A DNA stretch of 10,252 nucleotides from a virus (IMGVR_UViG_2778261533_000005:1-10252), one strand, 5' to 3'. Shown: positions 1,240 through 10,252, counted from the stretch's first letter. Notes: generated by a model from the letters alone, not told the origin. Translations and numbers: made by a program.

Positions 1240-1595
1240 CTGGCCTCCAGTTTCTGCTGTTCCCGCCCACTGACCGGTCGGTGCAGTCTGACGTTCTGCC
1301 CTTCTCGAAACCCCGCATAGCGCGAGGCGTCGCCATTGCGGCTTCTTCCCGGTTTACGCGCCCTGGTGGTTTGCGTCTGCGGGTATTTATGTTCCAGCCA
1401 CTGCTGCATCAGTTCACGTTCGTCATCGGTCAGGGCGAAGGACTGTATTTCACTGATAACGGCCAGCACCCAGCCTTCAGCAAACTGGTCTCCACGGCTG
1501 GTGCGGGTGGTGGTTTTTATTCTTTTGTTCTGTGCACTGATATACTGCTGACGCGCCTTTTTCAGCTGCCGGAGCTGTATCGGGTGCTGTTCCAT
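1236..1595 (-). CDS. hypothetical phage early-region protein (119 aa), first gene of the minus-strand operon in this window
   Basis: ATG at 1595..1593 and TGA at 1238..1236 overlapping the next start. The translation is basic and helical-looking with no low-complexity runs. No family recognised. Confidence 0.45.
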   Translation of the reverse strand: MEQHPIQLRQLKKARQQYISAQNKRIKTTTRTSRGDQFAEGWVLAVISEIQSFALTDDERELMQQWLEHKYPQTQTTRARKPGRSRNGDASRYAGFREGQNVRLHRPVSGREQQKLEAR

Positions 1596-1724
1596 CGCCT
1601 TCCGGGGTGGCGCAGTTCGTCCGTAACGGCGTCAACTATGCGAAACAGGCGCAGTCTGTACTCCAGACCACTATCAGTGCCGTTCGGGTGGCGCAGAAAA
1701 TGAAGGGTAACCGGCGTCAGCGAT

Positions 1725-2822
1725 GTGCTGACGCCGGTATTCACTCTGTGGTATCTGCAGAAAAACATCACCTCTGATATCGCGCCTTATGTCACCCGTG
1801 TGGTCTGGAGCGATAACATCAAAAATGAGTCCGATACCATTGAGGTGGAGCTGGACGACACCGATGGCCGCTGGCTGGATAAGTGGTATCCGGGCAAGGG
1901 TGACACGCTGACGCTGAAAATGGGTTATCAGGGCGAGAAACTGCTGTCCTGCGGTACATTCTCAATAGACGAGATCGAAGTGAGTTCGCCCGCGTCCGTT
2001 GTCGCTATCCGTGGGGTGGCCACCTCGGTTAACAGTGCTCTGCGGACTAAATCCAGCCGTGGTTTTGAGAACACCACGCTGGCAGCTGTTGCGGGGCGGA
2101 TTGCCAGAAAGCACCGGCTGAAACTGGTGGGCAGCATTGAGTCCATCAGAATCGACCGGGTGACCCAGTATGCTGAAACCGACGTGGGTTTTCTGCGCCG
2201 GCTGGCCAGCGAGTATGGTTATGCAGTGAAAGTGGTCAGTGACCAGTTGATTTTTTCTCATCTGGCCACACTGCGCAGTCAGGAGCCGGTCAGGCAGTTA
2301 AAACCGCAGGATGTGGCCTGCTTTTCCCTGCGTGACACCATCAACCGGGTCTATAAATCTGCAAAGGTAAAACACCAGAAAAGCAGCAGTAAAAAACTGA
2401 TCGTCTACGAAGCTGATGGTGGTACCCGTGAAAGCGACAAAAAGCTCAAAGGCGGTAAGGTTACCAGCGCTGACTCACTTAAAGTTAACAGCCGCGTCAG
2501 CGACCCGGACAGTGCCCGGATTAAAGCGGATTCAGCACTGGCCAGACATAACGAATACCAGCAGAACGGCTCCCTGACGCTGACGGGAACGCCTCAACTG
2601 ACAGCAGGCAACAAAATTGAACTGGTGGGCTTTGGACAGTTATCCGGTCCATGGCTGATAATCACTGCCCGCCATGCGTTTGAGCGTAACAGCGGCTACA
2701 CCACAGAGCTGGAAGTGGCACGGGGGCCAGTCACAAGAGGGAAAAAACAAAAAACTCAGAAACTCACGGTTTATCACCCGGATGGCAGTACATCGACGGT
2801 GATTAAGGAGAAGAAAAAATGA
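1725..2822 (+). CDS. baseplate hub protein (P2 gpD / Mu gp44-like, 'late control D' family); start uncertain, possibly 5'-truncated
   Basis: 365-aa ORF whose first in-frame start is GTG at 1725. It contains an ELDDTDG motif and the overall length expected of P2 gpD-type hubs. Its TGA at 2820..2822 overlaps the gpV ATG (ATGA). The nearest in-frame upstream stop is at 1701..1703. Confidence 0.7.
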   Translation: MLTPVFTLWYLQKNITSDIAPYVTRVVWSDNIKNESDTIEVELDDTDGRWLDKWYPGKGDTLTLKMGYQGEKLLSCGTFSIDEIEVSSPASVVAIRGVATSVNSALRTKSSRGFENTTLAAVAGRIARKHRLKLVGSIESIRIDRVTQYAETDVGFLRRLASEYGYAVKVVSDQLIFSHLATLRSQEPVRQLKPQDVACFSLRDTINRVYKSAKVKHQKSSSKKLIVYEADGGTRESDKKLKGGKVTSADSLKVNSRVSDPDSARIKADSALARHNEYQQNGSLTLTGTPQLTAGNKIELVGFGQLSGPWLIITARHAFERNSGYTTELEVARGPVTRGKKQKTQKLTVYHPDGSTSTVIKEKKK

Positions 2823-3346
2823 CTGGTGTCACCCGTCAGATCGGTACGGTCAGTGCCGTTGATGCCGACAGGGTTCAGGCCCGCGTTCGTCTGCCTGAAT
2901 GCGATAATCTGCGCACAAACTGGCTTAACGTGCTACAGCGCAATACCCAGGATAACAAGGATTACTGGCTCCCTGACGTGGGGGAGCAGGTTGAGGTGCT
3001 GCTCGATGCCAACGGCGAGGATGGTGTTATTCTGGGCGCGGTGTACTCAGACGTCGATAAACCGCCGTTCAGTGATAAAAACGTCCGGGGTACGAAATAC
3101 GCTGATGGCGCGGAGTTCAGTTATAACCGCGCGACCCATACGCTGACGGTCAGAGGAGGTATTGAGCGTATCGTGGTGGAGGTTGCCGCTGATATCTCTC
3201 TCAAAGGGAAAAACCTCGACCTCACGGGAGTTACCACGATCAACGGCCCCGCGACACTCAATGGTGATCTGGAAATCAACGGAAGCGCCCATGCAACGGG
3301 TAACATATTTGCTGATGGTCAGAACTCTAATCACCATTCCCATTGA
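2819..3346 (+). CDS. baseplate spike / assembly protein V (P2 gpV, Mu gp45-like)
   Basis: ATG at 2819 preceded by AAGGAG at 2805..2810. 175 aa with an N-terminal OB-fold-like region and a C-terminal repetitive beta-rich region (TLTV..., LDLTGVTTINGPATLNGDLEINGSAHATGNI) typical of gpV spikes. Position between hub and gpW fits. Confidence 0.85.
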   Translation: MTGVTRQIGTVSAVDADRVQARVRLPECDNLRTNWLNVLQRNTQDNKDYWLPDVGEQVEVLLDANGEDGVILGAVYSDVDKPPFSDKNVRGTKYADGAEFSYNRATHTLTVRGGIERIVVEVAADISLKGKNLDLTGVTTINGPATLNGDLEINGSAHATGNIFADGQNSNHHSH

Positions 3347-3402
3347 ACCTTCTTAAACGCCTTTAATATCGGCGCTTACTTCCCGGGGGCAATACTGCCT
3401 CC

Positions 3403-3750
3403 ATGAAAACGACCTCAGTATTCTGGCAACCAGCTCTGCAGGCTCCCGGCGAAATCGTCCGGGGGCTGGATGATATCCGGCAGTCCATCCAGATCATCCT
3501 GCGGACTCCCCGCGGCAGCGACCCGCATCGCCCGGAGTTCGGCAGCAATCTGCACCTTTATATCGACTGGCCTGTCGACCGGGCCATTCCGCATGTGGTT
3601 CGCGAATCCGTCGATGCCATCAGGCGCTGGGAACCCCGCTGCCAGCTTATGTCGGTTAAACCCGCCGTCGACGGCGAACATCTTACGCTCCGGGTGAGCT
3701 GGAAAGGCTCAGACGGACAACCCCGTACTCAGGAACTGCTATGGCGCTGA
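3403..3750 (+). CDS. baseplate wedge protein W (P2 gpW / T4 gp25-like)
   Basis: ATG at 3403. 115 aa, the size and position expected for gpW/gp25 family, with the IRQSIQIIL.T..G....P.FGS.L motif characteristic of that fold. Stop TGA 3748..3750 overlaps the gpJ start. Confidence 0.85.
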   Translation: MKTTSVFWQPALQAPGEIVRGLDDIRQSIQIILRTPRGSDPHRPEFGSNLHLYIDWPVDRAIPHVVRESVDAIRRWEPRCQLMSVKPAVDGEHLTLRVSWKGSDGQPRTQELLWR

Positions 3751-4844
3751 CAGAACCCGATTTTATTGAACGCGATGCCGATAAAATCACGGCAGAAATG
3801 ATTGCGAAGTATGAAGCGGATACCGGAAAAACGCTGTACCCGGCACAGGCTGAACGTCTGCTGATTGACCTGTGGGCCTATCGCGAAATGCTGGTCAGGG
3901 TGGCAGTACAGGAGGCGGCGAAGCAGAATCTGGTCGCTTTTTCCCGTGAGCCGATGATTGATTACCTCGGTGAACTGGTCGGTGTATACCGCCTTGCCGC
4001 GCAGCCTGCCACCACCACACTTCAGTTCTCTGTGGATGAGGCACTGGCCATTGATGTGCTGATCCCGGCAGGCACCCGCGTCAGCGCTTCCGACAGTATT
4101 ATTTTTGCCACCGATACAGACGTGGTGCTGAAGGCCGGATTGCTGCTGGTCAATGTCACGGCCACCTGTACCGAGCCGGGTACCGCTGGCAACGGCTGGC
4201 AACCGGCGCAGGTCAGTCAGTTACTCGATGAGATTGATAACATTGACCTGCTGGTGACCAATCTGACGGCCAGCTCTGGCGGTTCAGAGCAGGAAGACGA
4301 TGACCGGCTCCGGGAGCGTATCAGGCTGGCCCCGGAGTCATTCACCAATGCCGGAAGCCGTGGTGCATACCGTTTTCATGCTATGGGGGCGCATCCCGGC
4401 ATTGTCGACGTTGCTGTTCTTTCTCCCGTTCCCGGCACTGTCGAGCTGTATCCGCTGCTCAGCACTGGTCTGCCGGACAGCAGTATCCTCACTCTGGTAG
4501 AGAGTTTCTGTTCTGACGAAAAAGTCAGACCACTCACTGATACCGTGCGGGCTAAAACACCTGTTCAGGTGGATTACACCATTGAAGCCAGGATTACGAT
4601 CTATCGTGATCAGGATGCAAGGTTGGTAAAGGACAACGCTAACAGCGCCATACAGAACTGGGTGGCATCCCGTACCGCCACGCTGGGGCGCGATATTGTT
4701 CCCAGCCAGATTATCAGCGTGTTGTCCGTTTCCGGGGTGTACCAGGTCGAACTGGTGACACCGGCACTGAGGGTGGTGGCAGAAAACGAATGGGCAAACT
4801 GTACGGCGATCACTCTTAACATGACCGGGGTGTCCGATGGCTGA
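3741..4844 (+). CDS. baseplate protein J (P2 gpJ / Mu gp47 / T4 gp6-like)
   Basis: ATG at 3741 with AGGAA upstream. 367 aa, located between gpW and gpI; the sequence character is typical of Baseplate_J family. Stop overlaps the gpI ATG at 4837. Confidence 0.85.
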   Translation: MALTEPDFIERDADKITAEMIAKYEADTGKTLYPAQAERLLIDLWAYREMLVRVAVQEAAKQNLVAFSREPMIDYLGELVGVYRLAAQPATTTLQFSVDEALAIDVLIPAGTRVSASDSIIFATDTDVVLKAGLLLVNVTATCTEPGTAGNGWQPAQVSQLLDEIDNIDLLVTNLTASSGGSEQEDDDRLRERIRLAPESFTNAGSRGAYRFHAMGAHPGIVDVAVLSPVPGTVELYPLLSTGLPDSSILTLVESFCSDEKVRPLTDTVRAKTPVQVDYTIEARITIYRDQDARLVKDNANSAIQNWVASRTATLGRDIVPSQIISVLSVSGVYQVELVTPALRVVAENEWANCTAITLNMTGVSDG

Positions 4845-5415
4845 GGTGCTACAACTCCCGCCACCGCTTGAGGGTGATATCAGTCTCAGAACGCTGGGAA
4901 GACTGGCCGGACGGCTGGATAACATCGACCTGAGCGTACTGATGGTCGGTCTCGTCGATATTGTCGACAGTTCCGCGCTGCCATGGCTTGGCGAGCAGTT
5001 CTCGCTGTTCGGCGATGGCTGGGAACTGGCGGAATCGGACGATGTACGCCGCATGCTTATCAAATCCGCTATCGAGCTACACCGCTATAAAGGAACACCG
5101 TGGTCAATCCGGGAAATTATCCGCCGTTTTGGCTTCGGCGAAGTGGATCTGATTGAAGGTACGGGGCAGATTGGCTATGACGGCAGACACACGTACAACG
5201 GGCTTTTCGTCCATGGTGATGCACAAGCCTGGGCAGTCTATCGCGTCATCCTTCAACAACCCATCACTAACGATCAGGCGGCGCTGTTACGTCAGACGCT
5301 TGCTGCCTTTGCTCCGGCTCGCTGTCATCTGGCAAGTCTGGAATATCAGTCTGTCGCCATTCGATACAACAGTACTACCCGTTATGACGGTAGTTACAAC
5401 CACGGGAGCAGTTAA
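4837..5415 (+). CDS. tail/baseplate protein I (P2 gpI / Mu gp48-like, e14 YmfQ-like)
   Basis: ATG at 4837 overlapping the gpJ stop. 192 aa, immediately upstream of the tail-fibre gene as gpI is in P2 and Mu. Confidence 0.8.
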   Translation: MAEVLQLPPPLEGDISLRTLGRLAGRLDNIDLSVLMVGLVDIVDSSALPWLGEQFSLFGDGWELAESDDVRRMLIKSAIELHRYKGTPWSIREIIRRFGFGEVDLIEGTGQIGYDGRHTYNGLFVHGDAQAWAVYRVILQQPITNDQAALLRQTLAAFAPARCHLASLEYQSVAIRYNSTTRYDGSYNHGSS

Positions 5416-5417
5416 TT

Positions 5418-6371
5418 ATGGCAAATCTACCCGAAACCCCGCAGTGGGAAAGCGGCATCTACCAGATTGAGGTCTCTGACCCCGTTCTGGGCGGACCTGA
5501 CGGAATTTCTAACCGCCAGGCTAAACAACTGGCCAGCCGAACGTCATACCTCAAACAGAAGGTCGAAAAAAGCGGAACAGACCTGGCTGCACATATCGCG
5601 GCAGTTGACCCGCATACCCAGTACGCGACGAAAGCCAGTCCGACATTCACCGGCACACCAACAGCACCTACACCTGCAAATGGTGATAACAGCAAAAAGC
5701 TGGCGACGACGGAGTTTGTGGCCAAAGCACTTGCGGCACTTGCAGGCAGCGCCCCTGAGACACTGGATACGCTTAAAGAGCTGGCTGACGCTCTCGGTAA
5801 TGATCCAAACTTTGCGACTACGGTACTGAACAAGCTGGCGGAAAAGCTGGCTAAAGACCAGAACGGCGCAGATATTCCTGAGCCTGCGCTGTTTGTCAAA
5901 AACCTTGGTTTGGGGGAAGGCTCTGCACTACCTGTTGGTGTGCCTGTTCCATGGCCGTCAGCCACACCGCCAACAGGGTGGCTGAAATGTAACGGTGCAG
6001 CATTTTCTTCTGAAATGTACCCCAATCTGGCAAAGGCTTACCCCACGAATAAATTACCGGATTTACGGGGCGAATTTATCCGTGGCTGGGATGACGGACG
6101 AGGTATTGATGCAGGACGAGAGATACTTTCATTTCAGGAAGGCACTATCGTCTCCGGTTTTGATGATAATGATACTGGGGATATCAGTTCACTTAGCTCA
6201 ACACAATACGGATTTGGTGACACTCTAACCTCTAATCAATGGGGGGCCATAAATGGCAAAAAGTGGATATTTGATGCATCCAGTAAAGGTGCACAAAAAT
6301 ATGACTGGTGGGCTTATGTATCAGCTCGTCCGCGTAATATTGCATTTAATTACATCGTAAGAGCGGCATAG
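5418..6371 (+). CDS. tail fibre protein: constant N-terminal part (about residues 1-163) fused to the currently expressed variable C-terminal cassette 1
   Basis: ATG at 5418 with GGGAG at 5404..5408. The N-terminal region contains the side-tail-fibre motif SPTFTGTPTAPTP...ATTEFV...LDTLKELADALGNDPNF. The C-terminal region from about residue 164 is a tail-collar-type domain (PVGVPVPWP....GWLKCNGAAFS...YP.L...LPDLRGEFIRGWD) ending in ARPRNIAFNYIVRAA. The crossover site lies in-frame at 5893..5918. Confidence 0.9.
   Translation: MANLPETPQWESGIYQIEVSDPVLGGPDGISNRQAKQLASRTSYLKQKVEKSGTDLAAHIAAVDPHTQYATKASPTFTGTPTAPTPANGDNSKKLATTEFVAKALAALAGSAPETLDTLKELADALGNDPNFATTVLNKLAEKLAKDQNGADIPEPALFVKNLGLGEGSALPVGVPVPWPSATPPTGWLKCNGAAFSSEMYPNLAKAYPTNKLPDLRGEFIRGWDDGRGIDAGREILSFQEGTIVSGFDDNDTGDISSLSSTQYGFGDTLTSNQWGAINGKKWIFDASSKGAQKYDWWAYVSARPRNIAFNYIVRAA
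5893..5918 (+). other. 26-bp recombination crossover site 1 (gix/hix/pix-like), at the constant/variable boundary of the expressed fibre gene
   Basis: TTGTCAAAAACC-TT-GGTTTGGGGGAA: two 12-bp half-sites matching 8 of 12 positions as an inverted repeat around a TT core. The left half closely resembles the TT.TC.AAAACC left half I recall for Hin/Gin sites. The 14 bp from the core onward recur at the 5' end of every cassette. Confidence 0.7.
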
Positions 6372-6390
6372 AAACGTTGGTTTGGGGGAA
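6365..6390 (+). other. crossover site 2 (direct orientation), 5' end of cassette 2
   Basis: GGCATAGAAACG-TT-GGTTTGGGGGAA. The right half and TT core are identical to site 1. The left half is supplied by the conserved 3' end of cassette 1 and contains its TAG stop. Confidence 0.65.
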
Positions 6391-6915
6391 GGCTCGGCGC
6401 TGCCCGTTGGTGTCCCCGTTCCGTGGCCCTCAGCCACACTGCCAGCAGGGTGGCTGAAATGTAACGGCGCAGCATTTTCTTCTGAAATGTACCCCAATCT
6501 GGCAAAGGCTTATCCTACAAATAAACTACCGGATCTACGGGGTGAGTTTATCCGTGGCTGGGATGACGGACGTGGCGTGGATGCGGGGCGAGCCTTGCTA
6601 AGTCTTCAGGATGACTCTTTTGAAGCGCACAGGCATGAGTCATTTTTTTATGCGGGTATTTCACGCAATGAAATCCCATTAAAAAATCTTCCAAGTTCAG
6701 ACGAGATGCTGACTTTAAGTTCCACAACTAATGCCTTGTCACCGGACGGTATTGATGCCACCAATTCGTTAATTGGTAATGACGATTACAACTGTCTTAT
6801 CGAAGGGAATAAAAATAACAAACGAACAGCAACGGGTCTAAGTACCAGTATTGTCGGCGCAGCAGAAACCCGCCCCCGTAACATTGCGTTTAATTACATC
6901 GTAAGGGCGGCATAG
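6382..6915 (+). CDS. silent alternative tail-fibre C-terminal cassette 2 (collar-type domain, no own start or RBS)
   Basis: The frame is open from the crossover core (6379) to TAG at 6913..6915. The track's M is the TTG inside the site. The N-terminal 70 aa are near-identical to cassette 1, followed by a unique about 90-aa core and the conserved ETRPRNIAFNYIVRAA end. It would be in frame with the constant region if joined at the core. Confidence 0.75.
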   Translation: MGEGSALPVGVPVPWPSATLPAGWLKCNGAAFSSEMYPNLAKAYPTNKLPDLRGEFIRGWDDGRGVDAGRALLSLQDDSFEAHRHESFFYAGISRNEIPLKNLPSSDEMLTLSSTTNALSPDGIDATNSLIGNDDYNCLIEGNKNNKRTATGLSTSIVGAAETRPRNIAFNYIVRAA

Positions 6916-6934
6916 AAACGTTGGTTTGGGGGAA
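6909..6934 (+). other. crossover site 3 (direct orientation), 5' end of cassette 3
   Basis: GGCATAGAAACG-TT-GGTTTGGGGGAA, identical to site 2. Confidence 0.65.
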
Positions 6935-7393
6935 GGCTCGGCGCTGCCCGTTGGTGTGCCTGTTCCGTGGCCCTCAGCCACACCACCAACGGGCTGGCTG
7001 AAATGTAACGGTGCAGCATTTTCTTCTGAAATGTATCCCAAACTGGCAAAAGCTTACCCCACCAATAAATTACCGGATTTACGGGGTGAATTTATTCGTG
7101 GCTGGGATGATGGGCGGGGAATTGATAATAGACGCAACCTACTGTCTGCACAGTCTGACACTATTCAGAATATAGTTGGCACTTTTGGACGAACTCAGCT
7201 TTTTAAAGATGCTTTAAATTCAGGGCCATTTAGTCAAACTGACTCTATATTATCAGTAGGCTTGCAACCAACTGAGAGTATTGAAGGATATGGCGCCTCT
7301 GTATGGACATTCGACGCCTCTCGCTCAGTTCGCACAGCATCTGAAACACGTCCTCGTAACATTGCGTTTAATTACATCGTAAGGGCGGCATAG
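6926..7393 (+). CDS. silent alternative tail-fibre C-terminal cassette 3
   Basis: Same architecture: conserved collar N-terminus, unique core, ETRPRNIAFNYIVRAA, TAG at 7391..7393. No ATG or Shine-Dalgarno. Confidence 0.75.
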   Translation: MGEGSALPVGVPVPWPSATPPTGWLKCNGAAFSSEMYPKLAKAYPTNKLPDLRGEFIRGWDDGRGIDNRRNLLSAQSDTIQNIVGTFGRTQLFKDALNSGPFSQTDSILSVGLQPTESIEGYGASVWTFDASRSVRTASETRPRNIAFNYIVRAA

Positions 7394-7412
7394 AAACGTT
7401 GGTTTGGGGGAA
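7387..7412 (+). other. crossover site 4 (direct orientation), 5' end of cassette 4
   Basis: GGCATAGAAACG-TT-GGTTTGGGGGAA. Confidence 0.65.
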
Positions 7413-7994
7413 GGCTCTGCACTGCCTGTTGGTGTGCCTGTTCCATGGCCGTCAGCCACACCGCCAGAGGGATGGCTGAAATGCAACGGCGCAGCATTTT
7501 CTTCTGAAATGTACCCCAATCTGGCACAGGCTTACCCCACGAATAAATTACCGGATTTACGCGGTGAATTTATCCGTGGCTGGGATGACGGACGTGGCGT
7601 GGATGCGTGGCGAACATTACTGAGTGCTCAGGATTTTGCGTTTGAAGATCATGCTCTGGGGCTACCTACCAATCAGGGATATGCAGGTATTGAGAAAGGT
7701 AGCACTGAAAATGATGTTTATGCCGCTTTCTCTGATGGCATGCACTATACAGGGAATGTAACCAGTAGCGGTCAATGGGATGATTATTCTCAGTCAAAAA
7801 TTTATATCCGTAGTGATGGTAAGCCTGTCGGAAATAATATTGAGTTAGCTAACTCAAGTGAGGCTTTGCGTTCTTCTTTGCGTACTTATAGAGCCAGTAC
7901 AGGATGGTATAACCCAGGACTAAACAAACCTAAAACAGCTACAGAAACACGTCCGCGCAACGTTGCTTTTAATTACATCGTAAGAGCCGCATGA
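7404..7994 (+). CDS. silent alternative tail-fibre C-terminal cassette 4 (largest, 196 codons)
   Basis: Conserved collar N-terminus, unique about 115-aa core, ETRPRNVAFNYIVRAA, TGA at 7992..7994. Confidence 0.75.
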   Translation: MGEGSALPVGVPVPWPSATPPEGWLKCNGAAFSSEMYPNLAQAYPTNKLPDLRGEFIRGWDDGRGVDAWRTLLSAQDFAFEDHALGLPTNQGYAGIEKGSTENDVYAAFSDGMHYTGNVTSSGQWDDYSQSKIYIRSDGKPVGNNIELANSSEALRSSLRTYRASTGWYNPGLNKPKTATETRPRNVAFNYIVRAA

Positions 7995-8013
7995 AAACGT
8001 TGGTTTGGGGGAA
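7988..8013 (+). other. crossover site 5 (direct orientation), 5' end of cassette 5
   Basis: CGCATGAAAACG-TT-GGTTTGGGGGAA. The left half is a variant because cassette 4 ends with TGA rather than TAG. Confidence 0.65.
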
Positions 8014-8481
8014 GGCTCTGCACTGCCCGTTGGTGTGCCTGTTCCGTGGCCCTCAGCCACACCGCCAACAGGGTGGCTGAAATGTAACGGTGCAGCATTT
8101 TCTTCTGAAATGTACCCCAAACTGGCAAAGGCTTATCCTACAAATAAACTACCGGATCTACGGGGTGAGTTTATCCGTGGCTGGGATGACGGGCGAGGGA
8201 TTGATGCAGGACGTGCTTTATTAAGCTTTCAAACTGGGATGCTGGAAAAACACCGCCATATTGTTGTAGCTAACGATGGGTATGACACAAAGGATGAATG
8301 GGAGTTGGCCACAATTTTCAAAAAAACATATACACAAGGACGGGGACTTGATGCCACAAGTACAGGCGGGAGTCTGATCCCATCACCGACACTTCATTCA
8401 CGAGGGAGTATTGGTAACACTGGTGGTAGTGAAACTCGCCCCCGCAATATCGCATTTAACTATATCGTGAGGGCGGCTTAA
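8005..8481 (+). CDS. silent alternative tail-fibre C-terminal cassette 5
   Basis: Conserved collar N-terminus, unique core, ETRPRNIAFNYIVRAA, TAA at 8479..8481. No crossover site follows it; the tfa gene converges 6 bp downstream. Confidence 0.75.
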   Translation: MGEGSALPVGVPVPWPSATPPTGWLKCNGAAFSSEMYPKLAKAYPTNKLPDLRGEFIRGWDDGRGIDAGRALLSFQTGMLEKHRHIVVANDGYDTKDEWELATIFKKTYTQGRGLDATSTGGSLIPSPTLHSRGSIGNTGGSETRPRNIAFNYIVRAA

Positions 8482-8487
8482 TTATAC

Positions 8488-9105
8488 TCAACTGGCTGCT
8501 GCCAGAGGCATTTCCGGCCAGTTGATATCCGGTGCAGTGCTGATGTCAGTCGCATTAAGCGTATCTATGAAATCAAGCACGGCGTTTAGTTTTTCCGTCT
8601 CCTGGGGCGTCAATCGGCGTCCGGCTCGTAGTTTGAGATTAATAAGCTCAACAGATGCCATTGCCTGTTCCTCAAGTTGCTGACGATGCGCTCCGGCAGC
8701 TTCCAGTTCTGCTGCGTGCTGTCGTCTCGTATCTGTCACCCAAATCTCACCATCCCAGACATCATAGATAGTAGCTGGCTGTTTCACCGTCGTATCAGGA
8801 GGGTAATCTCCCGGTTGTGTGATTTGCACAGCGTTACCATTCTCTGTGCTGTAAACCGTTTCGCCTCTGTGGTCTGGAACATATTTCCAGATGTTCTGGT
8901 CGGTATCACGACAGACAGCGAAGCCGGGGCGTTTTTCTGGTGGCGCGTCAATGCATGAGTGAGCCGGAATTCCAACACCATAAGCGAGATACTCAACAGT
9001 GGCAGAGAGATATTCACGGTTTTCAGCATCGTAGTTATAAACGGTAATATCGCCTGCAGTTATAGCGATACCATTCTGATCAAGTACTGCAGCAGCATTA
9101 TTCAT
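8488..9105 (-). CDS. tail fibre assembly protein (Tfa / Mu U-like chaperone)
   Basis: ATG at 9105..9103 overlaps the TAA of the inverted cassette (TAATG). 205 aa. The C-terminus DTLNATDISTAPDINWPEMP resembles the D.TSTAQDIEWPALP end I recall for E. coli TfaE-type chaperones. Confidence 0.85.
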   Translation of the reverse strand: MNNAAAVLDQNGIAITAGDITVYNYDAENREYLSATVEYLAYGVGIPAHSCIDAPPEKRPGFAVCRDTDQNIWKYVPDHRGETVYSTENGNAVQITQPGDYPPDTTVKQPATIYDVWDGEIWVTDTRRQHAAELEAAGAHRQQLEEQAMASVELINLKLRAGRRLTPQETEKLNAVLDFIDTLNATDISTAPDINWPEMPLAAAS

Positions 9106-9608
9106 TAAGTAGCCCTTACAATATAGTTAAACGCAATATTACGGGGGCGGTTTTCCGTTCCTGTATTCCCTCCGTTGGCACCTAATCTATAAACACCACG
9201 AGTGCCAATAGCACGTAGTGAAGATGGAACTTTTACACCTGACTCATCTGTTTTAACAATCCCGCCATCACCGTATGTAGCCAGTATACCAGGGTTTGTT
9301 CCTGCACGGGTGTTGTTTGCGGCAAGCCCTTCACCAGTCCATAACTCCATATAATGAATATGATCTATAACCGAATGTGATTGTGCATTAAGCAAGGAAC
9401 GCCCTGAATCAATTCCCCGCCCATCATCCCAGCCACGAATAAACTCACCCCGTAAATCCGGTAATTTATTGGTGGGGTAAGCCTTTGCCAGTTTGGGGTA
9501 CATTTCAGAAGAAAATGCTGCGCCGTTACATTTCAGCCACCCTGTTGGCGGTGTGGCTGAGGGCCACGGAACAGGCACACCAACGGGTAGTGCAGAGCCT
9601 TCCCCCAA
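9105..9608 (-). CDS. silent alternative tail-fibre C-terminal cassette M in inverted orientation, followed by tfa
   Basis: Minus-strand frame open from crossover site M to TAA at 9107..9105. N-terminus near-identical to the other cassettes (GEGSALPVGVPVPWPSATPPTGWLKCNGAAFSSEMYPKLAKAYPTNKLPDLRGEFIRGWDDGRGID), unique core, ends ENRPRNIAFNYIVRAT. No own start codon. Confidence 0.8.
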   Translation of the reverse strand: MGEGSALPVGVPVPWPSATPPTGWLKCNGAAFSSEMYPKLAKAYPTNKLPDLRGEFIRGWDDGRGIDSGRSLLNAQSHSVIDHIHYMELWTGEGLAANNTRAGTNPGILATYGDGGIVKTDESGVKVPSSLRAIGTRGVYRLGANGGNTGTENRPRNIAFNYIVRAT

Positions 9609-9625
9609 ACCAACGTTTTCGTCTT
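9600..9625 (-). other. crossover site M (inverted relative to sites 1-5)
   Basis: Plus strand reads TTCCCCCAAACC-AA-CGTTTTCGTCTT, the reverse complement of AAGACGAAAACG-TT-GGTTTGGGGGAA. It is the only site with its asymmetric core inverted, so it is the only direct inversion partner for site 1 in this configuration. Confidence 0.7.
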
Positions 9626-9679
9626 AACTCCCACCTATACCAGCTATGTATTTTTAACAAAACAAAGAGGATATTTTTC

Positions 9680-10252
9680 ATGCAAATTGGCTACATTCGT
9701 GTGTCAACAAATGACCAGAATACAGATTTACAACGAAACGCACTGAACTGCGCAGGATGTGAACTGATTTTTGAGGATAAAATCAGCGGAACAAAGTCAG
9801 CCCGACCGGGATTGAAAAAGCTGCTCAGAACGTTATCAGAAGGAGATACGCTCGTTGTCTGGAAGCTGGACAGGCTGGGCAGAAGCATGAAACACCTCAT
9901 CACTCTTATTGAGGAACTGCGGGAAAAAGGGGTTAACTTCCGTAGTCTTACAGACAGCATTGATACGTCAACACCCATGGGACGTTTCTTTTTTCACGTC
10001 ATGGGGGCTTTAGCGGAAATGGAGCGTGAATTAATAGTTGAACGAACACTGGCCGGACTTGAAGCAGCACGTGCACAGGGGCGTATTGGTGGACGTCGTC
10101 CGAAACTGACAAAAGAGCAACATGAACAAATAGCAAGGCTGATCAAAAATGGCTATAGCAGGAAACAGTTGGCAATTATTTACGATATCGGTATATCGAC
10201 GATTTATCGTTATCACCCTGTAGAGGAACTTCAAACTCAAGCTGATTTGTAA
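9680..10252 (+). CDS. site-specific DNA invertase, serine recombinase of the Gin/Pin/Cin/Hin family
   Basis: ATG at 9680 with AAGAGGA at 9664..9670. N-terminal IGYIRVSTNDQNTDLQRNAL holds the catalytic-serine motif. Long identical stretches to the Gin/Pin sequences as I recall them (GDTLVVWKLDRLGRSMKHLI, SLTDSIDTS.PMGRFFFHVMGALAEMERELI.ERT.AGL.AAR), plus a C-terminal helix-turn-helix. TAA at 10250..10252. The ORF-track start at 9485 is an upstream in-frame extension, rejected. Confidence 0.95.
   Translation: MQIGYIRVSTNDQNTDLQRNALNCAGCELIFEDKISGTKSARPGLKKLLRTLSEGDTLVVWKLDRLGRSMKHLITLIEELREKGVNFRSLTDSIDTSTPMGRFFFHVMGALAEMERELIVERTLAGLEAARAQGRIGGRRPKLTKEQHEQIARLIKNGYSRKQLAIIYDIGISTIYRYHPVEELQTQADL

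Follow-up and report, generated by a model that had tools for sequence, protein, structure and literature searches.

Organization of the tail-fibre locus

The window analysed here is a 10,252 nt stretch of viral DNA (IMGVR_UViG_2778261533_000005:1-10252), of which the segment 5,418-8,481 is displayed. It carries the constant part of a tail-fibre gene, six cassettes, a tail-fibre assembly gene and a serine invertase gene (Table 1). A block of approximately 220 bp occurred six times, five times in direct and once in inverted orientation (repeat family D1, inverted pairs I1-I5). Each block begins with the perfectly repeated 19-mer AAAC[CG]TTGGTTTGGGGGAA, which had 6 matches in the window versus 0 expected by chance. 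Starting at the GGT that follows the central TT, all six cassettes were open to their stop codons, with lengths of 154-197 codons, and no frameshifts or internal stops were found across them. Cassette A consists of a head, a variable body and a conserved 16-codon 3' tail and matched the Pfam Collar domain (E = 4e-14), and the heads of all six cassettes matched the Phage Tail Collar domain PF07484 at 52.7-55.8 bits (Pfam gathering cut-off 24). One idea is that the body might be inserted into a single domain made up of the head and the 3' tail; the structure predicted for cassette A from an alignment of the six window cassettes had a pLDDT of 39.6, which was too low to use. The tfa gene is located at the point where the two cassette arms converge, and F is the only cassette that shares its orientation. 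NCBIfam yielded no specific name for any of the invertase, the fibre and tfa.

Table 1. Coordinates of the genes, cassettes and crossover sites in the window
Feature	Coordinates	Strand	Remarks
Tail-fibre constant 5' part, 163 codons	5418..5906	+	Terminates within S-A, at its central TT; ORF 5418-6371
Crossover site S-A, expression site	5893..5918	+	TTGTCAAAAACC TT GGTTTGGGGGAA; positional homologue of Mu gixL
Cassette A	5907..6371	+	Expressed at present as the fibre-gene 3' part; head 5907-6116
Crossover site S-B	6365..6390	+	Left half overlaps the cassette A stop codon
Cassette B	6379..6915	+	Silent, direct; head 6379-6588; intact, in frame
Crossover site S-C	6909..6934	+	
Cassette C	6923..7393	+	Silent, direct; head 6923-7132; intact
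Crossover site S-D	7387..7412	+	
Cassette D	7401..7994	+	Silent, direct; head 7401-7610; intact
Crossover site S-E	7988..8013	+	
Cassette E	8002..8481	+	Silent, convergent with tfa; head 8002-8211
Tail-fibre assembly (chaperone) gene tfa	8488..9105	-	Pfam Caudo_TAP, E = 9e-26
Cassette F	9105..9611	-	Silent; sole inverted cassette of the window isomer; head 9611-9402
Crossover site S-F	9600..9625	-	Minus-strand reading: AAGACGAAAACG TT GGTTTGGGGGAA
Serine DNA invertase, Gin/Cin/Pin/Hin/Min family	9680..10252	+	Catalytic Ser9 context YIRVSTNDQ

Crossover sites and invertase

Six 26-bp gix-like sites were present and were aligned to gixL and gixR from the Mu record, as well as to the site table of PMC4134206 with its consensus. 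Five are direct and one is inverted (site F versus sites A-E), and the core TT and the right half were common to all six. Mu gixL reads TTATCCAAAACC TC GGTTTACAGGAA. The distance from S-F to the invertase ATG was 67 nt, as is that from Mu gixR to gin. The invertase contained the Pfam domains Resolvase (E = 2e-51) and HTH_7 (E = 1e-13), matched the PDB structures of Gin (4m6f/3uj3, E = 5e-91) and shared 72% identity with Mu Gin including the motif YxRVSTNDQ. The locus thus has the recombinase domains, the imperfect dyad sites with a shared 2-bp core and the inverted partner sites of the Gin/Cin/Pin/Hin/Min systems, and alternative orientations were seen at 16 E. coli loci in genomes other than the source strain. 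It is probable that the window invertase catalyses the inversions. Such systems use a Fis-bound recombinational enhancer in cis, typically within the invertase gene and toward its 5' end. Over its first 300 nt the window invertase gene was approximately 70-90% identical to gin per 30-nt block, a level that coding constraint would explain equally well, and a Fis-dependent enhancer may be used here too.

Prophage context

The host element is a Mu/B3-like transposable prophage of E. coli, with Mor and GemA in its context, a MuA-like transposase in its relatives and insertion sites that vary. Approximately 27.6 kb carrying genes for transposition, lysis, the head and the tail has been lost from the window prophage. 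This prophage is a deletion remnant whose array was left behind recently by a working system, so that the selection recorded in the cassettes was exerted in intact ancestors and relatives and not necessarily in the window genome; present-day selection on the window copy is doubtful since the head, tail-tube and transposase genes are missing. In P1-like E. coli plasmids the site sequence and the layout were those of the window, the heads were 88-91% identical to the window heads and some of the bodies were shared (E and I at 95% amino acid identity).

Arrangements of the array in other E. coli genomes

The comparison set consisted of 16 E. coli loci, from a prophage family sampled in only about 25 genomes, and these gave 13 different arrangements. 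The P1-like phage vB_EcoM-673R5 has the same sites but was left out, as its cassettes contain many frameshifts and its invertase gene is called as two split CDSs (Hin1/Hin2), which may reflect either decay or errors of assembly. The constant part was joined to differing cassettes among these other genomes. E. coli 12089 carried all six window cassettes at 98-100% identity in the order C E / F D A B (plus arm / minus arm), which is 4 inversions away from the window order A B C D E / F. Strains 8178, FEA3, DEF2 and DEF10, which are mouse isolates, had 0 differences over 4.5 kb of flanking sequence, yet were four different isomers, and these near-clonal isolates differed in the expressed cassette. 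Isomers were signed permutations that kept exactly one copy of each cassette, as for A, G, E and F in the mouse isolates. A gene-conversion system of the pilE/pilS or vlsE type was considered and rejected, as the isomers are reciprocal permutations and non-reciprocal conversion was found only within the shared heads.

Fusion to the constant part was seen, in one genome or another, for each of the cassettes A, B, C, E, G and H, including B in E. coli MS20655, C in E. coli 12089 and E in two further loci (L086 and L089). Cassettes that are silent in one genome were thus joined, in identical form, to the constant part elsewhere, which bears out the original prediction that silent cassettes are periodically expressed, and does so better than dN/dS. 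Cassette D was inverted in E. coli 12089 and direct in another locus (L094). No direct fusion of D or F to the constant part was found with chimeric constant-plus-cassette queries against complete E. coli genomes, where full-length matches were two pieces with another cassette between. Cassettes D and F are presumably expressed as well.

The arrangements agreed with a computed model in which 240 arrangements were reachable from the window order and every cassette could reach the expression site. The model invariants, a plus arm followed by a minus arm, tfa at the convergence point and E and F innermost, were kept by 16 of the 16 loci, and in all of these tfa was between E and F.

We are highly confident that the locus represents a Gin/Min-type multiple DNA-inversion system, or serine-invertase 'shufflon', that determines which receptor-binding end the tail fibre carries; what points to its activity is comparative and was drawn from genomes other than the source strain. 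Transcription and translation would begin in the constant part and run into whichever cassette follows the first 26-bp crossover site. The invertase would recombine any pair of sites in inverted orientation and, with sites at the cassette 5' ends, an inversion would swap the inner portions of the plus and minus arms converging on tfa. The 70-codon head is downstream of the crossover point and would travel with its own cassette. The cassettes probably differ in receptor specificity.

Divergence of the heads and selection

The six heads aligned codon for codon without gaps. Variable sites fell 5/2/28 by codon position in 68 codons (chi-square p = 3e-8) and 7/3/30 in 70 codons, which agrees with the original prediction that head differences were mostly at third positions. 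The few amino acid variants it had listed (PPTGW/LPAGW/PPEGW and N/K, the latter at codon 40) were all present. It had placed the heads within 5907-8230, which was correct for heads A-E while the sixth is elsewhere on the minus strand. Head dN/dS was approximately 0.06-0.10 (p about 1e-13) and not near 1, with a mean pN/pS of 0.069 (68 codons) or 0.10 (70 codons), and pooled head alleles (n = 34) gave an omega of 0.145. On these substitution patterns the proposal of strong purifying selection holds for the head-encoded protein, which is the N-terminal part of a Phage Tail Collar domain.

The further claim that this selection acts on each copy could not be sustained from the heads. The heads were recombinant mosaics (PHI p 0.0004-0.003), and 146 of 300 informative site pairs failed the four-gamete test. 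Between genomes, the heads of orthologous cassettes were more divergent than their bodies, as with differences at 7/210 versus 0/270 and 12/210 versus 0/225 positions. Gene conversion, for which a test had been proposed, was evident from tracts, two of them with an identifiable donor in the same locus. Nucleotides 135-174 of the cassette E head form a tract identical to cassette B, with a B match at 7 of 7 sites, and the body of this cassette E was identical to that of E in another genome (L084) although its head matched window cassette B. In a further genome (L091) the head of H matched the same-locus E at 12 of 12 sites. The heads therefore evolve non-independently, and selection on each copy is unreadable from heads alone. 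Mosaicism, the greater divergence of heads than bodies and the donor tracts together indicate that the heads draw on one pool of pre-filtered, mostly synonymous variants. The same head pattern would arise if selection acted on the copy being expressed at the time and conversion took place as well.

These same mosaic heads, with conversion tracts and faster change than the bodies between close relatives, would be in keeping with silent cassettes that are a dead archive, never expressed, with heads kept clean only by conversion from the selected expressed head, as would the defective state of the window prophage. The bodies argue otherwise. They have no conversion donor, yet across genomes they showed 49 synonymous versus 35 nonsynonymous changes (omega approximately 0.22, p = 1e-11), and 72 of 74 cassettes across genomes were intact, with one frameshifted and one truncated exception among relatives. 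Such non-convertible bodies are better evidence than the heads for the function of each cassette. With six different cassettes found fused to the constant part and the mouse isolates varying in the one expressed, a dead archive is very improbable. Under the preferred reading of an expressed, inverting array, the likeness of the heads would be kept by purifying selection on the protein during expression and by conversion that spreads the pre-filtered variants.

The head might instead be conserved as a DNA element, an extended recombination or accessory site for the invertase or RecA, with the codon pattern incidental. The repeat does reach approximately 200 bp past the 26-bp site, as in EC958 Phi2, and the heads do act as substrates for homologous exchange. 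Constraint on DNA would lower change at all codon positions, yet Nei-Gojobori pairwise comparisons of the heads gave dS of 0.18-0.51 with dN of 0-0.037, and third positions made up 28 of the 35 variable sites. The same pN/pS calculation in the other two frames gave 2.0 and 22.8, and the head is a recognised protein domain. Gin-family invertases require just the 26-bp sites and an enhancer. Only a slight chance is left to this explanation. Antisense ORFs over the heads (e.g. 6321-6497, minus strand) were rejected as genes, as that frame had pN/pS above 1 or contained stops; they are by-products of head conservation.

It is similarly hard to credit that the downstream cassettes are independent genes, each translated on its own from the polycistronic late transcript, with selection acting on a free collar-domain protein. 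RefSeq does assign each of them a CDS ('phage tail protein', TTG start), and cassettes in direct orientation would share the fibre-gene transcript. The putative TTG start is, however, inside the crossover site with no evident Shine-Dalgarno sequence or ATG, the reading frame is continuous with the constant part to which the same units are fused elsewhere, and calls of this kind were flagged as annotation artefacts in the EC958 paper (PMC4134206). Recent tandem duplicates in neutral drift, with a synonymous excess due to chance or composition, would account for the tandem layout and similar unit lengths but can be dismissed given the minimum changes in the heads (33 synonymous versus 6 nonsynonymous against a neutral expectation of 25% synonymous, binomial p = 1.5e-14), the chi-square and frame-wise pN/pS results above, bodies too dissimilar for recent duplication and the occurrence of the same cassettes in P1-like plasmids.

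Implications of the array

The head pattern is what would be expected for a long-known kind of phage host-range switch. A silent-site excess in array repeats is real evidence of protein constraint that is unassignable to single copies if the repeats exchange sequence, and the comparative test is the stronger one as permuted cassettes and their fusions to the constant part elsewhere show use directly. The locus is a compact instance of such an array, with six serine-invertase sites inside an E. coli Mu-like prophage. Its two-arm geometry leads to simple, checkable predictions, namely that a plus arm precedes a minus arm, that the innermost pair is fixed and that there are 240 states. Annotation that makes each silent cassette a 'phage tail protein' gene of its own misleads host-range prediction and prophage typing.

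A more tentative possibility, which we consider rather less than an even bet, is that the 70-codon head and the 16-codon 3' tail act as portable homology arms around the variable bodies, with cassettes moving between unrelated co-resident elements. If so, Mu-like prophages, P2-like prophages and P1/p15B-like phage-plasmids would be the elements exchanging, via homologous recombination or gene conversion. This would amount to a species-wide shared pool of fibre tips for E. coli phages, an integron-like cassette economy atop the invertase switch, and would explain why cassette number and content vary among otherwise 99% identical prophages.

Comparison with known inversion systems

The R64 shufflon (Rci) and Rin of a Bifidobacterium phage resemble the window in the multi-inversion choice of the C-terminal end of an adhesin or receptor-binding protein. 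These employ tyrosine recombinases and short asymmetric sites, in contrast to the serine invertase and 26-bp dyad sites of the window. An R64-type shufflon (tyrosine recombinase Rci, 19-bp sfx, PilV) was rejected as a classification, the window having a serine invertase and a phage tail-fibre target.

The Min multiple-inversion system of the P1-related plasmid p15B was reportedly described by Sandmeier et al. in 1990 and 1992. Judged from secondary citations and P1-like plasmids, on which this comparison rests, Min and the window share a serine invertase, six crossover sites, overlapping invertible segments and cassettes that are alternative 3' ends of one fibre gene. Min is found on a P1-type plasmid whereas the window array is in a Mu/B3-like prophage and not on a P1-related plasmid, and the window fibre has another, much shorter constant part (163 aa). 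For Min, 240 isomeric forms are given in PMC2481393, the same number as was computed for the window locus.

Prophage Phi2 of E. coli EC958 has a site, GAGAGATAAACGTTGGTTTGGGGGAA, that is nearly identical to the window site and is followed by a 197-bp repeat, and both orientations were present in PacBio reads (PMC4134206). Its 3' crossover site, GAGAGATAAACGTT GGTTTGGGGGAA followed by the 197-bp repeat, has the right half and the Collar-domain head as in the window. Unlike the window, Phi2 is P2-like with one invertible segment, two alleles and a constant part containing Phage_fibre_2 repeats. The Enterobacter prophage FRphi carries a Gin-dependent fibre shufflon with isoform mixtures measured by long reads and locked variants that differ in infectivity (PMC13418256). 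By this description it is like the window in having multiple C-terminal isoforms chosen by a gin-type recombinase, although there are three isoforms and the phage is different.

The G segment and Gin of Mu were similar to the window in the invertase, the site sequences and the spacing of the right site. Mu has two sites and two S-U pairs, each with its assembly gene, while the window has six sites, six cassettes and one tfa. The central dinucleotide is TC in Mu and TT in the window, and the 70-codon head shared by the window cassettes has no counterpart shared by Mu Sv and Sv'. In both, the invertase is at the prophage end adjoining host DNA, and the crossover occurs at a homologous place in the fibre gene, where the constant parts of the window fibre and Mu S share 65% identity over their final 20 aa.

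Organization of the tail-fibre locus

The 163-codon constant part of the tail fibre gene (5418-5906) leads into the first of six alternative 3' cassettes, A to F, and the arrangement of the window is constant-A B C D E / tfa F / invertase, where the slash separates the plus arm from the minus arm. Each cassette consists of a shared head of about 70 codons, a variable body and a conserved 16-codon 3' tail, and from the GGT after the central TT of the crossover site the cassettes A-F measure 154, 178, 156, 197, 159 and 168 codons. In this arrangement tfa is co-oriented with cassette F only and lies antisense to the fibre operon; cassettes A-E have no co-oriented assembly gene. Most relatives from other genera have a separate tfa after each collar cassette. 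Prophages of mouse strains carry an extra nuclease-domain gene between the baseplate V and gp25/W genes, an interval that is only a 56-nt gap in the window (3347-3402).

Features of the window and of related E. coli loci (L001, L088, L092, L093)
Feature	Position	Strand	Remarks
Baseplate genes	1725-5415	+	GPD hub, baseplate V, gp25/W, baseplate J, tail protein I
Tail fibre gene	5418-6371	+	317 codons; directly after baseplate genes
Four further open units		+	Downstream of tail fibre gene
Tail-fibre assembly gene (tfa)	8488-9105	-	Caudo_TAP
Fifth downstream open unit	9105-9611	-	After tfa
Serine recombinase	9680-10252		Resolvase and HTH_7 domains
PD-(D/E)XK nuclease-domain gene	L001 57-932; L088 1057-1932		Also in L092, L093

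Crossover sites

All six units start with one 19-mer, AAAC[CG]TTGGTTTGGGGGAA, which matched six times (five plus, one minus) where no match is expected in shuffled sequence. The first crossover site reads TTGTCAAAAACC TT GGTTTGGGGGAA as 12+2+12, and gixL in the Mu record (TTATCCAAAACC TC GGTTTACAGGAA) occupies the homologous position in the S gene. Over the 20 residues preceding the site the window fibre and Mu S are 65% identical, the distance between the right-hand site and the invertase start codon is 67 nt in both phages, and the window recombinase matched the Mu Gin crystal structures (E = 5e-91) with 72% identity to Gin. A site with the same right half followed by a 197-bp repeat has been described in prophage Phi2 of E. 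coli EC958, where PacBio reads recovered both orientations (PMC4134206).

In the internal sites (6365-6390, 6909-6934, 7387-7412 and 7988-8013) the left half is shared with the final codons and stop of the cassette before it (GCG GCA TAG AAA CG or GCC GCA TGA AAA CG), and the 3' tail is thus both protein-coding and half of the next recombination site. Directly 5' of the central TT, the expression-site copy has C (5904) and the other five sites have G (6376, 6920, 7398, 7999 and 9614). A C variant in one silent site of E. coli A33 (L087; CGCATGAAAACCTT) hints at localized conversion at crossover sites. RefSeq assigns a separate 'phage tail protein' CDS to each silent cassette (6382-8481 in the window, and in the related loci L001 and L084-L095). 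The supposed TTG start falls within the crossover site, so these calls are artefacts of annotating promoterless 3' gene segments.

Synonymous divergence of the cassette heads

All six cassettes were open to the stop in a frame continuous with the constant part, free of frameshifts and internal stops. The heads aligned gap-free over their first 68-70 codons and, as the original prediction had stated, differed mostly at synonymous third positions, with variable sites distributed over the codon positions as 5/2/28 for the 68-codon alignment (chi-square p = 3e-8) and 7/3/30 for the 70-codon one. Minimal changes numbered 33 synonymous and 6 nonsynonymous against an expected synonymous share of 25% (p = 1.5e-14). 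Nei-Gojobori estimates gave dS of 0.18-0.51 and dN of 0-0.037, and mean pN/pS was 0.069 (68 codons) or 0.10 (70 codons) rather than near 1, all dN/dS estimates in this study being from counting methods applied to recombining sequences. The two other frames gave pN/pS of 2.0 and 22.8 and the synonymous pattern is therefore specific to the cassette reading frame. The 3' tail (ETRPRNIAFNYIVRAA) had the same codon-position bias (4/2/14), and the bodies between were too divergent for meaningful alignment. A Pfam Phage Tail Collar domain was found in all six heads (53-56 bits; cut-off 24).

The head lies downstream of the crossover point and is therefore part of the cassette, not of the constant part. 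This is directly demonstrated by the cassette A head, which is identical in the expression site (window, L084) and when silent (L085, L087 and L091). Antisense open reading frames (MGYISEENAAPLHF..., MPxWGTFQKKML...) cross every head (minus-strand 6321-6497, 6838-7041, 7325-7519 and 7920-8120, and plus-strand 9485-10252 in its 5' part); they are unsupported as genes and recur only because the heads are repeated.

Mosaic heads and conserved bodies

The original prediction took this excess for purifying selection on each copy. The excess is real, but the heads alone cannot show such selection because they are mosaics: 146 of 300 informative-site pairs failed the four-gamete test and the PHI test was significant (p = 0.0004-0.003). 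Between genomes, orthologous cassettes differed more in the head than in the body, the reverse of the expectation for point mutation. Cassette E of the window and of L084 differed at 7/210 head and 0/270 body positions, and all seven differences fell in nt 135-174, where the window E equals the window B at 7/7. Body type H, found in relatives, differed at 12/210 head and 0/225 body positions between L084 and L091 (Fisher p = 1e-4). The L091 H head equals the E head of the same locus at 12/12 differing sites while E retains its own head, so this exchange was non-reciprocal. Given the mosaicism and these conversion tracts, the heads share one set of variants that selection has already screened. 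An equal synonymous excess would arise from conversion coupled with selection on whichever copy is expressed.

The bodies are better evidence for each cassette because they have no conversion donor. Across genomes they showed 49 synonymous and 35 nonsynonymous changes (omega about 0.22 by a counting method, p = 1e-11), and pairwise pN/pS for the E body alone was 0-0.20, or 0.04-0.13 for the more divergent allele pairs. Intact cassettes numbered 72 of 74 in 16 loci. Decay does occur in relatives, as one cassette of L087 is frameshifted (about 8072) and a deletion in MS20655 (L095, about 6479) has taken away the 3' end of tfa together with that of cassette E.

Natural isomers

Fifteen related E. 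coli loci were collected and, with the window, gave 16 in which cassettes were typed by body. The cassette fused to the constant part was A, B, C, E, G or H, G and H being further body types, while none of the complete E. coli genomes searched had D or F in the expression site. E. coli 12089 carries all six window cassettes (98-100% identity) as constant-C E / tfa F D A B / invertase. The prophages of 8178 (three isolates), FEA3, DEF2 and DEF10 share one chromosomal site (4.5 kb of flanks, 0 differences) and have four arrangements (A G E / F, A G F / E, A F / E G and G F / E A). These isomers and fusions in related genomes are direct evidence for the use of silent cassettes. The predicted expression of the silent cassettes was right in its conclusion, though its logic holds only in part.

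Inversion between a plus and a minus site would swap the inner parts of the two arms. Under this model plus cassettes would always remain ahead of minus cassettes, tfa would be kept at the point of convergence and the innermost pair would be constant. These rules were obeyed in 16/16 loci, the innermost pair always being E and F. In the model 240 arrangements are accessible from the window, that of 12089 in four inversions; 240 is also the number quoted for the six-site Min system of p15B (PMC2481393). The short-read assembly of Escherichia sp. MOD1-EC7003 (L029, L033 and L035) falls apart into contigs of 1-1.7 kb right at the cassette array, as expected from several isomers in the population or from collapse of the heads in assembly.

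State and origin of the prophage copy

The window is of E. coli origin. Prophages of strains M-17, JB2 and JNEC-KY180 match it at 99.9% identity over positions 1567-5417, and the opposite end of the same prophage in MS20655 matches 1-1572 (Mor, GemA and neighbours, minus strand) at 99.6%. The two parts lie about 27.6 kb apart in MS20655, separated by transposase, lysis, head, sheath, tube and tape-measure genes, which indicates an internal deletion in the window (junction 1567-1572, 6-nt overlap). Near 1712, a second deletion (556 bp) removed a tail gene 3' end, tail protein X and the gpD gene start, and the element on its own is unable to form particles. The array, invertase and sites appear untouched and the gene loss is thus probably recent.

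About 80 bp past the end of the invertase gene lie truncated host genes, different in each genome (L001, L084-L095): the yehR side, fepE, hyc, yicL, pdu, ygjJ and otsA. These flanks fit random transposition by a Mu-like phage with its right end just past the invertase.

Relation to known systems

Early genes are divergent from late genes in this prophage family, unlike in Mu. No paper was found in the literature on this array in the Mu-like prophage family. The locus is homologous to the Gin/Cin/Pin/Min family and would work like it. It cannot simply be equated with the G segment of Mu, given its six sites, shared heads and single tfa gene, and unlike Min it does not reside on a P1-type plasmid. 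Arrays on P1-like E. coli plasmids, however, share its site and two-arm layout, have heads with 88-91% identity and include body types E and I at 95% identity. Gin-dependent multi-isoform fibre shufflons have been shown experimentally elsewhere (PMC13418256), and the R64 Rci and Bifidobacterium Rin shufflons follow the same logic with another enzyme, a tyrosine recombinase. The system is an ordinary, well-understood type of phage host-range switch.
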